Positions 6,281-34,700 are shown, numbered from the whole stretch's first letter. The stretch: DNA of 58,080 bases, filler included, from Catajapyx aquilonaris (GCA_000934665.2; 3 parts of 3 records of this genome joined end to end with filler, not necessarily neighbours in it), one strand, 5' to 3'. Notes: generated from the sequence alone by a model not told the origin. Numbers and translations are program-made.

Positions 6281-9200
6281 ATGAGAATTCAACAATTGAA
6301 TGACAATGCCATAGAGCAAAAATATGAGACTGAGGAAAAGAAAGAAGGCTCCACTGAATTCCTGCCGATTGTTGACGATTGCAAAAATGTCAACATTGGT
6401 CTGGATGATCTACCAGAAATGGTTCAAAATCTTCACCTAACTGATTTGAAGGTCGAGTTGATACCAAAAGAGGAACTGCCACCAGATGAATCCAACGAAG
6501 ATGAAGTACTTGAAAGGGGTCCAACTCTTGGTAACAGAAAAGCTGACCGCCATAAACCTTACCCATCGAATCAGACTCAACAGCGACTATTTGCAGAGGT
6601 GAGTTACATCATTACACAGGGTTTACACATCGTTACACAGGCTATTGGAGATTAACAACCATAGGGACACATTTTTCAGACTACAGCCACTGTAAATACC
6701 CGGCTGTATAATGGAGGAAGTTTTGTTCTGAAGCCTCCACTGCCTCCCAAGAATGAGATGCATATCAACATAATCGTTGCAACTGTAAGTAAACTGGCAT
6801 ATATTATTAGTCGTGATTTTTTTCTTCTTTTTACTAAGCTGGAATATTTCCAGAATAATCCGCGAGGTCTGAGTCAAGGTAGTCCAGATCACATCTCCTG
6901 TGAAGAACCACCTCTGGTGCCCTCAGGAGACACAGCATGCAAAGAAAACTTGCCTCCAACTTCCAGCCTCTTGCCATCATCCAATCAGGAGGCAGATGTC
7001 TTTCTACCACATTATACATCCCAGACAGGTCTCAATATTGCTTCAAGTCAGACAACATCAGACGAAGACAACATCATTCCCATATGTGGGGACTTACCTG
7101 CAGAACTTCAGGAAATGGCAGCTTGTGAACGAAACTTGTCAACAACTTCCCGAAGTCATTCCAGTGTGTCATTTTCTAGCCAGGGCAAGGCTGACCAATC
7201 CTCACCATTTACATCACAGGGAAGTCCTGACTTTTCTCTATGTCAGACCAGTCCCGAGTCTCAGTTTGATCATAACAGTCCAGGGTCTTCCTCCGATCCA
7301 GATTACTACTCAAATCAAAGTAGTGAAACTGACACTTTTCACTACCTGAGAGAGGCTAGTATAACAGAGAACTCCGACAACATTGAGAGGTGGGAATGTT
7401 TGTTTGAGGACATAAGGGGTATCGATCTAACAAACAGTGATGGTGATTCAGGGGCTGAAGTTGACAAGATTGAAAGAAACTTGATAGAAGAGTGTGAGGA
7501 CTTGTTAAGTAGTAGCTCAAATGCAAATTCGCCACAGGAGTACTCGCCAGAAGCTCAAAACTTGTCCTCAAGTTCATCACCAGAACCCCAAAACTTCTTT
7601 CCTCCAAATGAATCACCTCAAACCGCTTCCCCACCAAACACACTCTCCACAAGCTTGCCCCAAAATTGCTTCACTCCCATTGACTTTCCGCAAGACAATT
7701 CTGCCTCCGATTCAAATTGTCGTGTAATACAAAACACAATCCCAGTATGTGATGTCATCAAACCAGCCAACATGCAGCAGGCATCGCTCCTAAACATTAT
7801 CACCATACCAGCAGTACAAGTACCACAGCAAGCAACACAACTAAGGCCACTACTTCCAAAGGGCCACCTGCAAAACCCCACCAGCAACTATTCCCCTGCA
7901 GGTTCTACAAGGGCAAGAGAAATAATTCAAAGAAAGCTGAATGCAGAGATGAAGACCAAGTGTTTTGCTATGATTTGTAACTTACCAGAAAGCCAGTTGA
8001 CCAATCCGGATTCAGATGGTGATACGTACGTAGGAATCTTTCTCTAAATAATACAATGCAGGTGTTGTTTTGTTATAGATTTATGTGATGTTCTGTTGCT
8101 TTCCACAGGCAGCTCCACATTGCTCTTTCCAATCGAACCGAACCAGAATTGCTCTATGCATTGGTGGAAAGACTTCGAGACTTTCCAGCAGCCTTGACAT
8201 GCAAGAATAATGAACTAATGGTATGTATGAGACAGACTTCCATATAAAGGATAATCTGCTGCAACTGATTTTTGCAGAATGCACTTGATATAGCAATTAC
8301 TGAAAAGAAGGCACTTTATGCAAGATACTTGGCTGAGACTATGGTGGACGTTGGAAGAATTACTTCAGTCACTGAGGTGAGAGCATTTTGTCTTGCCTGT
8401 GAACAGAGTATTCATGTGGGATAAAATGAACAATGTGTGGTATTACATTGTAAAGGGGACCTTACTGAAACATTTCAACAGGCCATAGGGTGGGAGTTTC
8501 TTTTGGGCATGTCAATGCTTGATAATCATGAAGGAAATTAGAGTAAAAATATTGCACCATGTTATTGCACTATAACACGAAATAACACTCCCACTGGCAA
8601 GTTCGAAGTAAAATAATTGACTTCACTTTAAGAAATAAAATGCCTGGAAGGGCGGCATGGTGGTCTAGCGGCTACGCCGCTGGCCAGCCAAGCGGGAGGC
8701 CGGGGTTCAAATCCCGTCCCCGTCACCTCTGCTTGGCCGGGTCTTTTTCCGCTTTTCACCCGACATCCCGGGGCAGAATTGCACTCCCTATCTGCCCGGG
8801 GCCAGTAGAAAAGGCCTGGTGTTTTTCACAAGTCAGAAATGACTCAAAAATTACAGCGCCCTCCCTAGGGAACCTCCCCCTGCCCCCCTAAGAGAGCCAC
8901 TGGCTCTATCACGGGGTAAAAAAGTAATAATAATAATAATAATAAAATAATTTAAAAAAAATGCCTGGTAGTCTGATGGGTAGATGTTACTTAAATGTAT
9001 TGTGTACAATTTGTCAATTCAGAGCATTCTGTTCAGCAGGCATTATAACAGACATTTCCAAATAAAATGACCATTTTGCCTGCACTACAAGGCTCATGTA
9101 AATAGCATGAAAATGATTGTCTCAAATTTTAAATACAGGTGCAGGTACTCCTAGTTTTACGCCTTTTCACATTAACACCAGTTTCAAAATTACCTTTGAA

Positions 9201-18200: not shown

Positions 18201-18817
18201 AGGTTGAACCATCTCAGGTTTTGCTCGGAACCCTAATGGCTCTCCCAATGAGGCAAACCAATCATGACCAGTAGAATAGTTTAGTGACGGTGATTGTTTC
18301 CATTTCCAGGAAGGCAAAAGTGGGAGGATTCCATTCATCTTGGCCATTGAATCACAGAGCTTACAATTTGTAAGACGAATGTTGGCACTTGCAAGAGATC
18401 CCAGTAAGCTGCTGACCACTACAGATTATCAAAAAAACACAGCATTGCATAGAGCTGCCAGCATTTCGGCATTTAGCAGGGAGAAATACATGAGTTTGAT
18501 TGAATTTTTGCTGCGAAATGGGGCACCACCCAATGAAAGAAATGCCATTGGCAGGGTGCCTAAAGCACTGGCACCTTCAGAATTGAAGGAAGTAAGTATT
18601 CAGAAGCAATAAGATAAGGCCTGATTTAACCCAATGGAACTATGAAACTAATAAGTCACATGAAGTGCCATAAGAAGTTCATTAGTTCCTTTCACTTATT
18701 TTAAACTTGATTGGAAACTGCATTCCATGGAAAATTATTGGATCCTGTTTTCAGTGTTGACCTTGACTTTCGTTTCAGGCATATGCCACAGCTTCAAAGC
18801 AGTCCAAAAGGGTGTGA
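6281..18817 (+). CDS. Nuclear (atypical) IkB-family ankyrin-repeat protein, IkB-zeta/IkB-NS/Bcl-3-like, ~789 aa
   Basis: Exons 6281-6598, 6680-6784, 6854-8025, 8109-8220, 8278-8376, 13208-13346, 13921-14024, 18310-18591, 18779-18817, all GT-AG with consistent phases. Spliced protein has NLPESQLTNPDSDGDTQLHIAL, NDQGNTIVHKLC, NNDGWTPLHMV, EGKSGRIPFILA and NTALHRAAS..LLRNGAPPNERN, which match the nuclear IkB ankyrin array, after a long acidic S/P/Q-rich N-terminus. An acceptor at 6279 implies an upstream exon. Confidence 0.9.
8648..8957 (+). mobile_element. Full-length tRNA-derived SINE
   Basis: A box TGGTCTAGCGG, B box GGTTCAAATCC, (TAA)n tail, TSD aaaatgcctgg at 8637-8647 and 8958-8968. Confidence 0.9.
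9142..10108. mobile_element. pogo/Tigger-like MITE hosting a nested MITE
   Basis: TIRs CAGGTACTCCT(A/C)GTTTTA; right end followed by TA. Confidence 0.7.
9352..9793. mobile_element. Tc1/mariner MITE with ~100-bp TIRs, nested
   Basis: cagggtgaagggaaacttgcacccaatcgccaggtagac...gtttttggctcc mirrored at the right end; TA flanks. Confidence 0.9.
10535..10600 (-). mobile_element. 5'-truncated SINE/LINE 3' tail
   Basis: Minus strand ccccctaa...catcacggagta plus A-rich tail, same layout as tails at 8883, 16811 and 54957. Confidence 0.55.
10625..11242. mobile_element. Non-autonomous DNA transposon with repetitive subterminal TIRs (possibly Mutator-like)
   Basis: ggaaatttcgtcccc repeats on the left, gggacgaattgtcggagacgaaatttcc on the right; internal 10860-10950 is homologous to 1260-1352. 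Confidence 0.6.
11570..12292. mobile_element. TIR-bounded non-autonomous element
   Basis: ctattgtttatccgcacct ... aggtgcggataaacgatag (18/19 inverted match); GC-richer interior; TSD unclear. Confidence 0.7.
12660..12810 (-). mobile_element. Degenerate tRNA-derived SINE
   Basis: Minus strand gggtggcatggttgggtagtggtc...gagttcaatccc (A/B boxes); 3' limit approximate. Confidence 0.6.
14144..15001. mobile_element. piggyBac-type MITE
   Basis: TTAA-CCCTAATAAGACTGG ... CCAGTCTTATTAGGG-TTAA. Confidence 0.88.
15379..15848. mobile_element. piggyBac-type MITE with duplicated right TIR
   Basis: TTAA-CCCTTAACTACGTAGGTGG ... CCACCTACGTAGTTAAGGG-TTAA; subterminal gagcctgag repeats. Confidence 0.88.
15900..16165. 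mobile_element. TIR element embedded in (CA)n
   Basis: gcattcctatccttgtgagg ... cctcacaaggatagcaatacgc, flanked on both sides by CA repeats. Confidence 0.65.
16533..16881 (+). mobile_element. Full-length tRNA-derived SINE (second family)
   Basis: A box TGGTGATGCGG, B box GGTTCGATCCC, (TAAA)n tail, TSD ggaaactg at 16525-16532 and 16882-16889. Confidence 0.9.
16953..17346. mobile_element. Tc1/mariner MITE with long imperfect TIRs
   Basis: ta-cagagtggaccaacttcaagtgt ... acacttgaagtttgtccaccctg-ta; inverted similarity extends ~110 bp. Confidence 0.85.
17475..17740 (-). mobile_element. tRNA-derived SINE (third family)
   Basis: Minus strand ggcaggccatatggctgagttggt...ggttcgatcccc; 3' limit approximate. 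Confidence 0.75.
17786..17968 (-). mobile_element. mariner transposase remnant
   Basis: LGWEWLTHPPYNPGFAPMDFH resembles the mariner motif LGWEVLPHPPYSPDLAPSDFH. Confidence 0.8.
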
Positions 18818-27105: not shown

Positions 27106-28231
27106 TCATATCCGGTAACGAGGGTTCTTCATCGCCTCCTGCTGACCGCAATCGAATATGTCAGCGTGGCAAAAGTAGGAGATCTCGGCACGGCTTGGGA
27201 TGTCCCATATGTCCTTCAGCTGGATACTGAAATCGAAGAGGGAAAGCTGCTCTGATGACCCATCGAGAGACTAACACTGAATGACTACGAAATTAATTTT
27301 TTAAAAAGTCGAACAAAAAAAACTAACCCGATGGAACGTATGGCAACTTCCTGATCAGCATCTTCGGTCCAAACCTCGATCCTGTTGCCCCTAGCCCTGC
27401 AACCCGCGACGGCCCCAGTCACCTGGACGCCGTACCACTGGAAACCCGAACCGACGATGCACAACAGCTGCGACATAAAATATTTCCCCATGAATTTCCA
27501 ATCGAATTCTCCAAATAAGCTGACTTACAGTCTGCATCCACTTGTCCCTGATCATGTCCCGAGGAGCGTTCTTCCCCAGCGGGATCCGAAAGTGTCCTCC
27601 GTACTTGTTCTCATCCGACTCCCACATTGGCTTCACTCCGTGCCTGAAGCAAGCGTAGTCGTACCCGCAGGCGTTCAGTGGACCCGGGTTGTCTATATCC
27701 TCCCACACCCTATGGGTGCACCCATTGTTAACAATATTGTTAACCGGCTTTGTTTCATCTAGGTTCTTACCGTATGAAGGCAGGAAGAGACTGCAGGAGG
27801 ATCAAGGGAGCTAGGTTGTCTCCCCACCTGCTCCTCTTCTGGTGGGTACGGATGACCCACATGTTCCACCAGGCACCCAGGAGAGGCATGGCCCCCTGGA
27901 GCTCATCTGGAGGCAGATACGGGTTGACAGTAGGCAGCGGATCTCCGTACATGTAGTACATCGCTGGTTCGGTAGGTGTCTGAACATCCGGGTTGTATTC
28001 CCTCGGATAGAAGCAGGGTGCCAGGGCGGACAACTCCACTTTCGAACTAGTTGGTGCGTCACCTCCTCCGACGTCCATGTGTTCCTCTGGTGGTACCACA
28101 GTCTCCTTCTCTTCGATGGTCATGTCCCCACTGCCGTCTCCAAGCTCCATCCCAGTATGAGGGACGATGTCAGGCTCCGTGGGGTCAAGGGTCGAGGCAG
28201 CACCTTCCCCGTGGTCATTGTCGCCCTCCAT
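27106..28231 (-). CDS. eIF4E: Divergent eIF4E-family cap-binding protein with acidic N-terminal extension and PAM2-like motif, 300 aa
   Basis: Exons 28231-27771, 27709-27529, 27467-27328, 27226-27106, GT-AG, 903 nt open. Motifs PLLGAWWNMW..W, DYACFRHGVKPMWE..NKYGG, WMQTLLCIVG, GAVAGCRARGNRIEVWT, ISYFCHAD. An acceptor 7 nt before the ATG implies an upstream exon. Confidence 0.92.
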
Positions 28232-29179
28232 TCGATTCCTGAGAGTTTGAAAGTCCCGACCGTTACTAGGTTTTCAACAATGTGTAGACGACCAGTTGAT
28301 TACATGACAACATGGATCAAGCAAGTTCGAAACGTACATGTGACCAAGCATCGCATTGTCACACTTTTCCGCAAGTCATGCGAATATCAAACACTACCAC
28401 TCAGCATATAGAACACACCCCACGTCTTAACAAGATGACCTTTCGGACGAAATAACTGTGACAGAGCCACGGCACGAACATAGTTATTGAGAACATAATA
28501 CGCAGGAATAACTGACCTTTAGCAGCGGCTGCCCTATTGCACAATGGCCGACCTGCTCCTCCTCTCTCTGTTCAGGCAGAAATGGAATTAACAACGATCG
28601 AGTGTCAGCAACAATGTGTGTCAACAGCGCCATGTTTACCATGGATGTCGAGTAGTGGTTCCCCAGGTTACCGTCAAATATGAAATGTGCACAAGAGAAG
28701 AGGCCAATAGTAGCCTATAGGAACCAAAATGGGGGACATCAGAGTTTCAAATTGTCATGACCTGGACCCACCCAAGCAGTACCACTCATTGTCTACTCTT
28801 CTGAAACAGCGGACAGTGTATATTAACCTGTAGGAATAAATAAATGGCACTTAACTCCCAACTCTTTGTGTGTGAAGATCACATTGTTGAGGAAAGGCAC
28901 AACAGGTCGATATAAGTGACTTCGAGTTACATAAGCAGATCAACGGGACTCATGGAGACGAAGAATAACTCTTAATTTTTGTCCTACTACCTATCATGTA
29001 CCAATACCAATACGTAATACGACGAAGTACCATTGAAACTTAAGGATGGGTCCTTCTCGTAAAACTACATTCACGGTAGAAAAATTCCACAAAACAATGG
29101 GAAAATAACCAGAGCTGGAGACAAAATTAATCATGATTATAAGTACGTAATTCACAGCATCCACACACTAACCCGCACG

Positions 29180-29731: not shown

Positions 29732-31421
29732 CAACCAAATGCACCAATGAATCACCAATCGAAATATAGCACTTTACAATATTCTCAATCTTTACAGTGA
29801 TGGTGTTAGTGATTACAAACATCGGCAAGAATAATTTATTACCTGGTCACTCCAAACGCATTACTTGAACCTGTCGATGGTCCTAAATATATCGGAACAT
29901 GGAAAAGGAATTATTATAATAATAACTATTTAGTGTTTTACCAAGATACAAATATTACTCCTGGCAAAAAAGGTGACCCCGAGAGAAGTTCATGGACACA
30001 CGCGAATGAATATAATATGGTGAGGGCAACTCATACGTAACAGAATATCGACGTGTTCTTATAAGAGGAGACAATAATTCGAAATAGAACCACACTCAAG
30101 CAATGGCTCCAGTTCAGGTACCAGATCAAAATCAACCATTTTTGTCTGTTCATAAACGAGTAAAAAATGGAATGTAAAGTATGCCGAAAATCCCCGGTCT
30201 CCTGGACAGAATCATCATGGACAGAATCATCCGATTGCATGCCATTAATAACTAACATTAACCAGTAATATTACTGTTTAGGCTCATCAATAAAGCAAAT
30301 GGGTGTGACAGCTCCCTGAGAGTGAATGTAGGATATTATTTCATCAATATCATGTGATAGCAGGACTTTGGCTAGCTTTACCATGTTAGCAAATACACCG
30401 TCTTGGCGATCAGCAGCAAAATATTCAGAAATTGATAATAATCTGCTCCTGTCCATAACGACAAGTTCAGTAAGCATCCAGACGGGTCCTTGATCTAGAA
30501 TAGGTGCAGGTTGCCTGCTTTGGCATGAAGAGCAAGGCGGCAGAAGTGATGCAGATGTAGCCAGTTCATACTATCACTGGTGTTCGGCATATTTCCGTTG
30601 ACTAGGAGTTGGTAAGCGAAACGATGACGTCAATGGCAAGTTAGGCTGGGCGGCTATAGTAACCTATGTATTACGACGTGAAATCATATGAGCATTGTCC
30701 ACTTTCACAAAATGAACAACACATTACTATAACACGAGAAAGTGAATCCCATAATTGATAAATTGAGCATTTATTTAAAAAGTAAAGAGATGTCACCAGT
30801 ACTGAAGAACAATCACCGGTTGACAATATCAGTTCGACCTCCCTACCCATATCAAGGAAGTCATGCTGCGACGCGTAACATTAATGTATTTTACACATCC
30901 GACAAGAACTCACCGCTTTATCGTGTACAACTGAACATTTGTCATTACTGCTCAAGGTAAGAGGTTAACTACATATCAGTATACAATGCTTTCATTGTAT
31001 ATGACGGGCGCACGCCACCAGGATATATTTAACACACATACAACAGGATCTCGCACAGGAGTAAGATAGAGTGGAATAGGGAGATGCTGAAAATTGGGCA
31101 AAAAGCTTCTTCATTTTACCTGCATAAATCTTCCTTCAGTGACAACAATTGCTGAAACAGTTCTTAAACTATATCAGGAAACACTATCCAGTACATCATG
31201 CAACGGGAAATTCCAACTCCACCAGAATCTGGCATTTGCACTAACATGTCAGTAAATTAAGCATTAAATAGTGGGATTCACCATTAGCATTGTCGCGGCG
31301 CAAGTATGAAAATGCCACTCTACTTGCAGATCTTCACAGGAAGTAACCACACTTAAATCACAGAGTTATACAATGACAGCACTTTAATTGTGAAACTTTT
31401 AAATAGTGAGGCGATAATAAC

Positions 31422-31720
31422 GTGGAAGCCGTCACGTACATTCACAGCAATATGCTTAAGCACAGGGATTTGAAACCAGCGAACATATTGCTGTGCAATG
31501 CTGATAGCCATGTGAAAGTCGCCGATTTCGGCATAGCAAAAGTAGCAGGTGTTCCAACGCACAGCATGTCATATGTTCAACACACAAGATACCGAGGTAC
31601 CCTTATCTACTCGAGCCCTGAACAGCACAGAGGAAGTGTACATAGTCGAAAGACTGACATTTTTTCTCTCATGGTAATTTTTTCGAAGTATGACACCTTT
31701 CCCACGTTTTCCACCTTTCA
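31422..31720 (+). pseudogene. eIF2-alpha kinase (PERK-like) C-lobe fragment
   Basis: EAVTYIHS..KHRDLKPANI..VKVADFG..HT..GTLIYSSPEQ..G...KTDIFSL covers subdomains VIa-IX; in-frame TGA at 31407; no N-lobe seen; frame decays after subdomain IX. Confidence 0.75.
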
Positions 31721-34700
31721 TCACAGCTTGCTACGGTACGCATCCAAAATCAGTTCTACATATTAATAAAACCCATCAGCTGACAATATTCATCCAGAAA
31801 CATCAACTCTTGTGTCAGAAGTCATTATTATTATCCTCTTCTTTCTCTCCGCAGCATTTGAAAACCAACATCGTAACAAGTAAGGGAGATCGGGGTCGGT
31901 TGTAACACTTTTTAGTTTGGATTTTTAAATTCAGTTGCATATGCATTTAGGCAAAGGTTTTTGACATGGTGGAAATAAGGCAACATTCCCTGAGATGCCC
32001 AAGGGCGAGAGGGAAAATAAACAGATTAATAAAGTAAATACACAGACACGGTGTAAGGGAAGACAGAATAATTGACATGTCTCCAGAAGGTTGCCCAAAC
32101 GTTGTTCACTCTTTCATTTACACAGATATCGTGTACCATCATGAGGGATTGGGATGGCGACATCGGACTTTTCTTTGGACAGTTAAATTTGTGGACCACG
32201 ACTATCCCGCCAAGAAAATATTTGCAACGTATGTGACGTACTCGTCGCTTTGCTAATTAAAATGAGAGGGGACATTAGTTGAAATGCACTGACAGTAATA
32301 ATACAGTATAAGGATGTAACCTGCAACCAGCTAACTCGAAGTGCATGTGGGCATAAATGAATATTTAGATAAACTGATGAAATATGGAAAAATGCAGCCC
32401 ATTACATAATGCTCATTCAGTAATAAGAACAATTTTCAAGTGGCATGTAATTTTCCGAAATTTCGTTATGTTGATTCACATTCTGCCCGAGTTTATTCCC
32501 ATAAATTATAATGACAACATAACATACGTATCAAAACGATAATGTTTGTTGTTGCTGGATAAAAAAAAGTAATGCACGTCTGCAGCCTTTCTGGCAAATT
32601 AACACAACAAAAGAAGTCTAACAATTTTTTTTTGCATCATAGCCATCGGGGGAAGTAGGTGCGACGAAAGGTCCATAAATTGGCAGAAACATCAACCTGC
32701 TCGAAAATAACCGTTTGGTTGTCAAAAAGTATTCTCAATCATTTGTCACAGGAAGAGCATGGAACATCAACCACAGAAAACAGGAGGGCGATGCAACGAA
32801 TAAGATGGGTGGGTGTTGTTCAGTTTGGTGCTCAAAGACTTAAATAATATGAACAAGTCCAAGTTGGTAATTTTTTTAAATAGTAAAATTGTCAGCAGAA
32901 CAAGTAGTGTCAGTTTGCCATCCAAGTAGGGAATATGTTGTTCTGTCAAAAGAGAAATAACTTATCCTGCTACGCATAACATGAAGTGAGTCATTATTTA
33001 CACATTCTTCACAGATACCCTGTCGTATTGACTTCTACCCGGACTTCCATTAACGAGAGTATCTCAGTAGCAGAATTTGTGATATAAGGAGCATAAATAT
33101 TTACATATTTCCGTCCAAGTCCTTCTTCATTATTATTTTAACCTGTACTGTAAACTACAAAAGATATAAATATGTCTACATTCATATGACAACAAAGGGT
33201 GGTGAACAAGGTTCTTCTCGAAATGGAAGCCGGCTGGAACCATGAGTAACGGTAACAACATGCCATGGCATAGAATCGCCCAAGACAACAGCAATGGCTG
33301 GAATGGAACACTACATACTACTGCAAGTTCTATAGACCGTTATGAATCATAGTTAACTTGTACGTGCTTTCAGATTAATATGTAACACAAATTGGCATGC
33401 TTCCCAACTATACTGGTCCGAGACTTATTCTCTCTACAATACACTTTGTTCGGAAGCATTGTGTCTAACAATTAAGACGAGAGTGAGCTGGTGCTAGATG
33501 TGACCATAAGTTAGAAGATAAAATATACCATTTAGGACTCACAATCATGTGGACGTGAACATCAATCAGACGCCAAATCAAAATAGCTACCACAAAAGGC
33601 GGGGCACAATCTCAATTGTATCACAACACTTCATAGCGTGTAATCCGAATCGTCCTTGTCGAAAAGCATGAAGGCACAAAAAGTTATCAAAATTGGACTC
33701 TAATAATGGTAGTAATCAGCTGCATATCCGTGATAATAAATACATACTTGCATCGTGATATGGGCATCAGAAGCTCCTCTTAAAAGAAAAAGCATGAAAC
33801 GCAAACAAAACCCAAAGGAGGCCATTGTCAGCGCTGGTATTCTCAATGGAGCGAAACCATCGCCGGTTATCGTTCCTGAGAATGTCAAAATCAACCAAAA
33901 AGTCTACCACTAGCGAATTCTGGTGTCAATAATTCTACTTCCTTGGGCCCGAGAGCATTTTTGAGAAGGTTGGACTTATGTCGTTTCTTATTTATATCTT
34001 GCTTATGACAAGCAGTAGGCATTGAATCAAAATGTAGAGGTTGCTATTCGAGTAAAATAGATCTTCCTGAGTTGTTTTCCTATGTATAGTTACCAACAGT
34101 ATTACATGTGAGTTTTTGTATATTTTTATTTCTCTCTAATAAAAACCTCACATACCATCCATCTATCCCACAGAGCTAGTCAAACTAGACCACTCTTGAC
34201 ATTGGTGCAGTAGTGATTTGGACCTTTATAAAAGGATCATTCTCATCAACCAGGATCCACCTCCTTGGGTATCATCACTAGTGACTGAGCTCTGCACTAT
34301 GGCTTTGCCCTGCTGCCTCCATAAACTCGCCTAAAATTTCACCTGGTGAGCATTCTGATAGGATCCTTTTGCACAATCATGAACCAGAAAGGGTAAAAAT
34401 TGCAAAGATGCAAAAGAAGAGCGTGACCTGGCAGGCCTGGCGCAGACCCTTGCAGCAAGACTTCATCCAGACAAGAAGCCTTTTCTCACCATATGATTTA
34501 GCTAAGTTATGCAACAATCTAGGCAATAAAGACAAAATATAACCCAGAATCTGAAATAAATCAAAATCCACCATCGCGACACATGCAACAGTAGAACAGG
34601 GAAGACGCTAAAAATTGGGCAGAAGCTTCTTCATGACCTCCATCAATCTCACTTCAGTGAAAACACCTGCTGAAACAGCTTTGATAAACAGCTTTTGATG

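Follow-up and report, generated by a model that had tools for sequence, protein, structure and literature searches.

A candidate PAIP1-type PAM2 motif in the N-terminal extension of a divergent eIF4E paralogue of Catajapyx aquilonaris

We analyzed a 58,080-nucleotide stretch of DNA from Catajapyx aquilonaris (GCA_000934665.2; parts of three records joined end to end with filler, hereafter the window), for which a preliminary description had been made from the sequence alone. The minus strand of the window carries a four-exon gene of the eIF4E family at 27106..28231, and its 300-residue product begins with an acidic extension containing a peptide, VELSALAPCFYP, that resembles the PAM2 motifs which bind poly(A)-binding protein (PABP) at its MLLE domain. 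We consider this peptide a candidate PABP-docking PAM2 in a divergent eIF4E paralogue. The reading is plausible but unproven, and our own judgment of it is nearly balanced, with a slight lean towards doubt.

A PAIP1-like peptide in the N-terminal extension

The motif occupies residues 65-76 (28004..28039, minus strand), with the core LSALAPCFYP at residues 67-76, and is encoded by the codons GTG GAG TTG TCC GCC CTG GCA CCC TGC TTC TAT CCG (28039..28004). The preliminary description had read the same peptide at these residues, and we recovered it from the minus strand and the spliced coding sequence. It had also claimed a correct spacing of Leu, Ala, Phe and Pro, and all four are indeed in register with the canonical PAM2 consensus LNxxAxEFxP, in which Phe is the main determinant and Ala is sterically constrained (PMC7356810). 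Trp may take the place of Phe in such motifs. The core keeps these four residues, has Ser in place of Asn, as human PAIP1 does, and has Cys in place of Glu. The PAM2 of human PAIP1, 124-LMSKLSVNAPEFYPSGYS-141, is a well-known ligand of the PABC domain of PABPC1 (PMC12102759); the two cores have LSxxAPxFYP in common, that is, 7 of 10 positions, including the Ser for Asn and the Pro-x-Phe-Tyr-Pro. Judged by its residues, the motif looks like a well-formed PAM2 of the PAIP1 type.

Of all 71,166 10-mers free of stops in the six-frame translation of the window, LSALAPCFYP scored highest by BLOSUM62 against the PAIP1 core, with 32 against 26 for the runner-up. When the 115-residue extension was shuffled 200,000 times, the pattern L[NS]..A..F.P appeared in 7 shuffles, L...A..F.P in 95, and an ELM-style PAM2 regular expression in 123. 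Across the 116,156 residues of the six-frame window the regular expression matched four times and L...A..F.P once, at the motif itself; within the 300-residue protein the regular expression had a single match. The first rank against PAIP1 and the 7 shuffles in 200,000 both speak against a chance origin of the motif.

Scans with an ELM-type pattern and with the Pfam PAM2 profile had been proposed in the preliminary description, and they gave different answers: the regular expression matches the motif, and the profile does not. This profile (PF07145) found no match at E ≤ 10 in exon 1 (153 residues) or in two motif fragments of 28 and 46 residues, in a search that was run without a positive control and in which the HMMER filters discard most matches above about 0.1. 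The 28-residue fragment, too short to be an informative query, retrieved three capsid proteins from the PDB at an E value of about 0.9 and no PAM2 peptide chain.

Variation between gene copies

Of five public runs listed, four contain the stretch, and none of these is an RNA run. Contigs from the four DNA runs (X1 to X4) of the source sample, all from one study, were aligned to the stretch at 80% likeness. They revealed several further copies of the gene, about 84-91% identical to it, over 27300-27960, which covers exons 2 and 3 and the 3' portion of exon 1. Across exons 2-3 the joints of these contigs skip intron-sized stretches, and the summed contig depth at 27534-27577 was 158-288, whereas most single pieces with the reference sequence have about 23-39. 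A 425-nucleotide contig (27535-27956) has 37 differences and 7 gaps, including a 3-base insertion in the coding sequence, and another matches 27806-27904 and is unlike the window upstream of that point. Inside the window, tblastn of the spliced product found its own locus only and no second copy. The gene is a member of a small multi-copy family, the other members of which lie outside the window. Among the differences listed for the distant copies, exon 2 has four synonymous codons and one replacement, and exon 3 has four synonymous codons and no replacement; this excess of synonymous differences points to purifying selection on the family core, and not to a lone decaying copy.

Among the contigs listed, those of the distant copies were not seen across the motif. 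Run X4 has a single contig spanning 27927-28120, with 9 differences from the window; X1 to X3 have the window form. Three of these differences fall in codons 63-77 (S63, Y75 and P76), and all three are synonymous, in a segment where 25% of sites are synonymous. Directly after the motif (residues 77-90; 27962..28003, minus strand) the codons drift: the X4 copy carries P81Q, D82S (a two-base change), T87I and A90V, and its change at V83 is synonymous. Codons 38-62 show no differences. Counted by nucleotide, 3 of 3 changes in codons 63-77 are synonymous, against 1 of 6 in the flank (one-sided Fisher test, 0.048). The preliminary description had expected the motif to be kept in orthologues while its flanks drift; this is what we see in one close copy, with three silent changes in the motif segment against four replacements among the next 14 residues, and the part concerning orthologues finds no counterpart in our searches, which returned none (see below). 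We take the synonymous-only pattern over the motif as a first hint of constraint, and it also argues against a chance match.

A modeled complex with an MLLE domain

Modeling the peptide with the MLLE domain of PABP had likewise been suggested. A pattern scan of metagenome contigs for the MLLE signature returned 118 loci, mostly PABP-like transcripts, and in the 58 MLLE domains that we aligned the core GKITGMLLEI was invariant (58/58). The partner chosen, L051:238-477, is an arthropod-like PABP MLLE (Pfam MLLE, E = 7.2e-33) that is metagenomic and not the organism's own. It was co-folded with residues 50-95 in ESMFold2, with the alignment not used and with no interface output. The complex scored 0.32, 0.34 and 0.34, and three controls scored 0.00-0.02; contact agreement between the runs was at least 89%, the predicted local distance difference test (pLDDT) value of the partner was at least 52, and the verdict of the tool was 'weak support'. 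The suggested modeling thus ended in a weak pass, 0.34 against 0.02 for the best control, with a heterologous MLLE. Among the 78 solved complexes in the calibration of the tool, 51 came up to the pass mark, as did 2 of 108 mismatched pairs; at scores of 0.60 or less, only 5 of those 78 did so, together with all 4 passing mismatches. The model lends weak support to PABP docking and may shift its odds only a little. The low scores of the controls nevertheless speak against a chance look-alike, as does the fact that translation factors are the kind of protein that bears PAM2 motifs.

The same metagenome records contain many animal-type PABP transcripts and genes (loci L014, L029, L054 and others). 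Some of their MLLE domains are split by an intron right after ...SLKAKV, and others are intronless and resemble complementary DNA.

A possible chance resemblance in the drifting extension

The alternative that survives best is that the motif arose by chance in a disordered tail that drifts fast, and that it does not bind PABP, in which case the protein would be one more divergent eIF4E paralogue of a kind common in arthropods. We regard this as quite possible, if on balance less than probable. Several observations, together with those on the start codon given below, weigh against PABP docking. The motif was chosen post hoc from a very large scan over very many windows, and the rarity figures overstate its significance. 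Its rank by BLOSUM62 falls to 213 of 71,166 against the ATXN2 motif and to 316 of 71,166 against that of Leishmania eIF4E4, the three other matches of the regular expression in the window lie in non-gene frames, and the Pfam PAM2 profile is unmatched, as described above. Compared with PAIP1 and other PAM2 ligands, Cys replaces the consensus Glu before Phe, and Leu stands in place of the usual Asn before the conserved Ala; in Leishmania eIF4E4, the PAM2 Glu gives an electrostatic contact, and binding is weaker on its loss (PMC6379680).

The evidence from variation and modeling can also be read in this direction. The variation result comprises 9 differences in one contig from one sample, and the copy concerned may be an allele or a recent paralogue. 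The model score lies exactly at the pass mark, where, according to the tool, a pass is likelier to be false than true if the pairing was not already a probable one, and the modeled pass may stem from solved PAM2-MLLE complexes that the predictor had learned. The flank after the motif drifts fast even between close copies, and the extension is without detectable relatives. For exon 1, a word-based search among longer proteins gave 0 of 1,358 candidates at E ≤ 0.01, HMMER against 1.84 billion representatives gave no match at E ≤ 0.001, and the ESM Atlas gave no usable match. Moreover, the N-termini of insect class I eIF4Es vary greatly in length, an example being eIF4E-7, which like the present protein has a long, variable N-terminal part (PMC3382400).

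Among longer proteins, exon 2 returned one candidate, which was not scored. By sequence, exon 1 retrieved from the PDB only ATP synthase subunit f, owing to a faint likeness of residues 75-97, YPREYNPDVQTPTEPAMYYMYGD (27941-28009, minus strand), to the N-terminus of the mitochondrial subunit (9b0x_R). We dropped the idea that this stretch is a relic of subunit f, as E values of 1.1 (PDB) and 0.31 (Pfam WRW) are at chance level. The stretch YPREYNPDVQTPTEPAMYYMYGD drifts between the two close gene copies.

Disorder and translation of the extension

PAM2 motifs are generally found in disordered regions (PMC6379680). The extension (residues 1-115; 27887..28231, minus strand), which is Pro/Gly-rich and predicted to be coil, had been called acidic and of low complexity, and its composition agrees: among 115 residues there are 24 Asp/Glu against 3 Lys/Arg, with 16 Pro and 12 Gly. 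An AlphaFold2 prediction from the single sequence, which is weak evidence, placed no secondary structure in residues 1-107, with block means of pLDDT of 42-61. The motif would then lie in a region consistent with intrinsic disorder.

A second alternative holds that the motif lies outside the protein that is made, either since a silent or decaying gene yields no such protein, or since transcription or translation starts downstream and the extension is a 5' leader. We think this improbable. The two downstream starts that the preliminary description had named, Met91 and Met115, are both in frame, the predicted start Met1 has a weak context with a pyrimidine (c) at -3, and exon 1 matches no family. 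In addition, an acceptor-like CTCTCAG lies just upstream of the Met1 ATG, 3 bases before its upstream flank, and further upstream there is an open reading frame with a donor-like GTCAGT near 28514. On the other hand, the frame of exon 1 is open for 168 codons, beginning after a stop at 28276..28274 (minus strand), and spans the extension. The G+C content by codon position is 0.67/0.44/0.63 in the extension and 0.55/0.44/0.73 in the core, compared with 0.36-0.39 in the introns and 0.42 in the window; the extension looks coding because this pattern is coding-like and far above the introns. In-frame Met codons occur at 1, 28, 37, 52, 91, 94, 115 and 124, the first four of which precede the motif, and Met28 has the best start context, with g at -3 and G at +4. 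Finally, the three introns are intact with GT..AG borders, the frame is unbroken, and the synonymous-only pattern over the motif, together with the synonymous-rich exons 2-3, suggests a translated and constrained gene.

We also noted that, in the region upstream of the gene (28232-28714, minus strand), the open reading frame is one of 76 codons (28484..28714) and ends at a donor-like AAG|GTCAGT. This frame and the CTCTCAG could reflect an intron in the 5' untranslated region or an upstream open reading frame. An upstream coding exon joined at CTCTCAG was considered and dropped, as the sole candidate frame joins out of frame when inspected by eye.

The eIF4E core, the cap pocket and the eIF4G-docking site

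The exons, joined by script, give a 903-nucleotide coding sequence of 300 codons plus stop. Exon 1 (27771..28231; this and the following features are on the minus strand) is defined by its open frame, extends from Met1 into codon 154, of which it supplies the first two bases, and holds the extension followed by the first, highly divergent portion of the eIF4E core. Exons 2 (27529..27709) and 3 (27328..27467) were placed by Pfam IF4E and PDB alignments and carry the core with Trp183/Glu184 and with Arg238/Arg240/Arg243/Trp247, respectively. Exon 4 (27106..27226), defined by the splice model and a tblastn piece, encodes the C-terminal 39 residues and the TGA stop codon (27108..27106). The three introns measure 61, 61 and 101 nucleotides.

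The product is a genuine eIF4E-family protein. Searched as separate translations against Pfam IF4E (PF01652), which has a curated cut-off of 28.7 bits, exon 2 scored 36.5 bits (E = 5e-09) and exon 3 scored 29.1 bits (E = 1e-06); exon 4 alone matched no Pfam family. At E ≤ 0.01, exon 2 matched 29 and exon 3 matched 21 distinct solved eIF4E-family sequences in the PDB, in the order vertebrate class I eIF4E, Drosophila eIF4E and 4EHP.

In the HMMER alignments, residues 15-60 of the exon 2 query align with residues 88-133 of the solved human eIF4E chain 1ipb. Human Trp102/Glu103 correspond to Trp183/Glu184, human Arg157, Lys159, Lys162 and Trp166 correspond to Arg238, Arg240, Arg243 and Trp247, and human Arg112/Trp113 are replaced by His193/Phe194. 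Aligned by eye to the human sequence, the places of Trp43, Trp46 and Trp56 are taken by Trp121/122, Trp125 and Trp136. With its two stacking Trp, its Glu and its basic residues in place, the core has probably retained cap binding.

Trp73, on the dorsal helix of eIF4E, is the residue on which eIF4G and the 4E-BPs dock. In the same by-eye alignment, Phe152-Ile153 stand at the places of human Phe72-Trp73, the Ile153 codon being at 27773..27775. The core part of exon 1 gave no alignment to any eIF4E in Pfam, PDB or large-library searches, and residues 108-153 retrieved nothing from the PDB by sequence. The loss of eIF4G docking at the Trp73 place, and with it the 'eIF4G-independent' character that the preliminary description gave to the protein, rests solely on the by-eye alignment of exon 1, and appears reasonable but unproven.

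Comparison with known systems

According to PMC11754739, PAM2 in an eIF4E has so far been reported for trypanosomatid eIF4E3 and eIF4E4 only, in agreement with the preliminary description, which knew PAM2-bearing eIF4Es from trypanosomatids and not from animals. Our literature search found no case of PAM2 in an animal eIF4E among the matches listed, which were covered mostly at the level of titles and opening lines of abstracts. As in Leishmania eIF4E4, which acts with PABP1, and T. cruzi eIF4E3, an eIF4E here appears to have a disordered extension that bears a PAM2, in the present case as judged from sequence alone. The peptide MNPNATEFMP of Leishmania eIF4E4 docks on the PABC/MLLE domain of PABP1, as established by crystal structure and nuclear magnetic resonance, with a dissociation constant of about 2-3 x 10^-8 M (PMC6379680), which links eIF4E and PABP directly. 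The affinities of canonical PAM2 ligands span 10^-8 to 10^-6 M. Trypanosomatid eIF4E3 and eIF4E4 differ in carrying two to three PAM2 motifs, whereas the present protein has one, of the PAIP1 type and lacking the Glu. Trypanosomatid eIF4E4 is furthermore a scaffold for both eIF4G3 and PABP1 (PMC6379680), while the Trp73 place of the present protein seems to be lost. The extensions have no sequence relation (exon 1 gave 0 matches among 1.84 billion representatives), so the likeness to trypanosomatid eIF4Es would be convergent; by its sequence, the present protein does not appear to be a member of the trypanosomatid PAM2-eIF4E type and might at most work alike.

PAIP1 and the other cellular PAM2 ligands ATXN2, PAIP2 and eRF3 likewise bear the motif in a translation factor, within a disordered part of it. 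The carrier differs, however: PAIP1 is an eIF4G-like adaptor, and the present carrier is a protein of the cap-binding family. By analogy, the nearest functional counterpart in animals appears to be LARP1, in which one polypeptide binds both the cap region (m7Gppp plus the 5' terminal oligopyrimidine; PMC8034618) and, via PAM2, PABP (PMC11754739), and a single polypeptide joining cap and PABP would thus not be unheard of there. In contrast to the present protein, LARP1 binds the cap by its DM15 region and not by an eIF4E fold, and it is conserved across eukaryotes, whereas the present gene belongs to an orphan family of paralogues. Metazoan class I eIF4E (eIF4E-1) supplies the best solved matches, and its cap-stacking Trp, Glu and basic residues are kept in the present protein, which departs from that class in an exon 1 core too diverged for Pfam and PDB, in the Ile at the Trp73 place (by eye) and in His193/Phe194.

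A possible bridge between cap and tail

Collectively, these observations are consistent with a lineage-restricted, fast-evolving eIF4E paralogue of a small multi-copy family, whose disordered acidic extension would carry a PAIP1-type PAM2. The eIF4E core may bind the m7G cap through the Trp pair, Glu and basic residues that it retains, while Leu67 and Phe74 would fill two pockets of the MLLE domain with Ala71 against its surface, such that one polypeptide would bridge the cap and poly(A)-bound PABP. The Ile at the Trp73 place suggests that the protein probably does not recruit eIF4G, and a clamp lacking eIF4G docking would be cut off from the usual path to 43S recruitment. Protection, storage or repression of the bound mRNAs, of the kind proposed for LARP1, would be a more likely outcome of the bridge than activation in the manner of trypanosomatid eIF4E4, which still binds eIF4G3. 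What we infer is binding to MLLE and to the cap, the lost interaction with eIF4G, and which way translation would be affected. Taken to its full extent, this reading would mean that an arthropod-type lineage evolved, independently of kinetoplastids, a small eIF4E family that clamps the cap to PABP through a PAIP1-like PAM2 after giving up eIF4G docking, probably for mRNA storage, protection or silencing, and thus an eIF4G-free closed loop formed in an animal by a true eIF4E; in this complete form we consider it unlikely.

To our knowledge, the only other MLLE-bearing animal protein is the HECT ubiquitin ligase UBR5/Hyd, the MLLE domain of which binds PAM2 peptides. A real MLLE ligand with this other partner, serving eIF4E turnover or regulation and not a cap-to-tail bridge, would share the motif evidence of the PABP reading, and the present data, in which a PABP-type MLLE alone was modeled, do not tell MLLE domains apart, but we hold it very improbable given the much higher abundance of PABP, to which PAM2 proteins in translation usually bind (PMC7356810).

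Other features of the window

Opposite exon 1 there is a 198-codon open frame (27815-28411, plus strand), probably a side effect of a coding sequence rich in G+C and poor in stops. An exon-like frame (31410-31766, plus strand), which lies upstream of the eIF4E gene by about 3 kb and on the opposite strand, codes for the segment of a protein kinase with the catalytic loop (Pfam Pkinase, E = 3.4e-20). In the Atlas, a neighboring kinase exon fell among mixed clusters, eukaryotic as well as bacterial. Further plus-strand frames comprise an ankyrin-repeat frame at 18280-18612 (Pfam Ank, E = 2e-06) and a Ser/Pro-rich open frame of 460 codons at 6665-8047, which has no Pfam match. A run of N near 19.3 kb, among the 177 N of the window, indicates that this piece of the window is a scaffold with a gap. 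Rfam gave no matches across the window.

Implications

Beyond the preliminary description, the present analysis adds the contig copies of the gene family, the synonymous-only pattern over the motif, the likeness to PAIP1 and the weak modeled pass with an MLLE domain. Should the motif be a chance match, the gene would merely be another fast-evolving eIF4E paralogue. According to PMC6379680, eIF4G stands between eIF4E and PABP in the closed loop of all well-studied eukaryotes except trypanosomatids, in which the PABP site is on eIF4E4 itself. If the candidate PAM2 is real, a second independent origin, this time in an animal, would make direct cap-to-tail bridging by eIF4E a recurrent solution, and a version apparently unable to bind eIF4G would be a natural tool for studying the closed loop alone, separating protection or storage of mRNA from activation.

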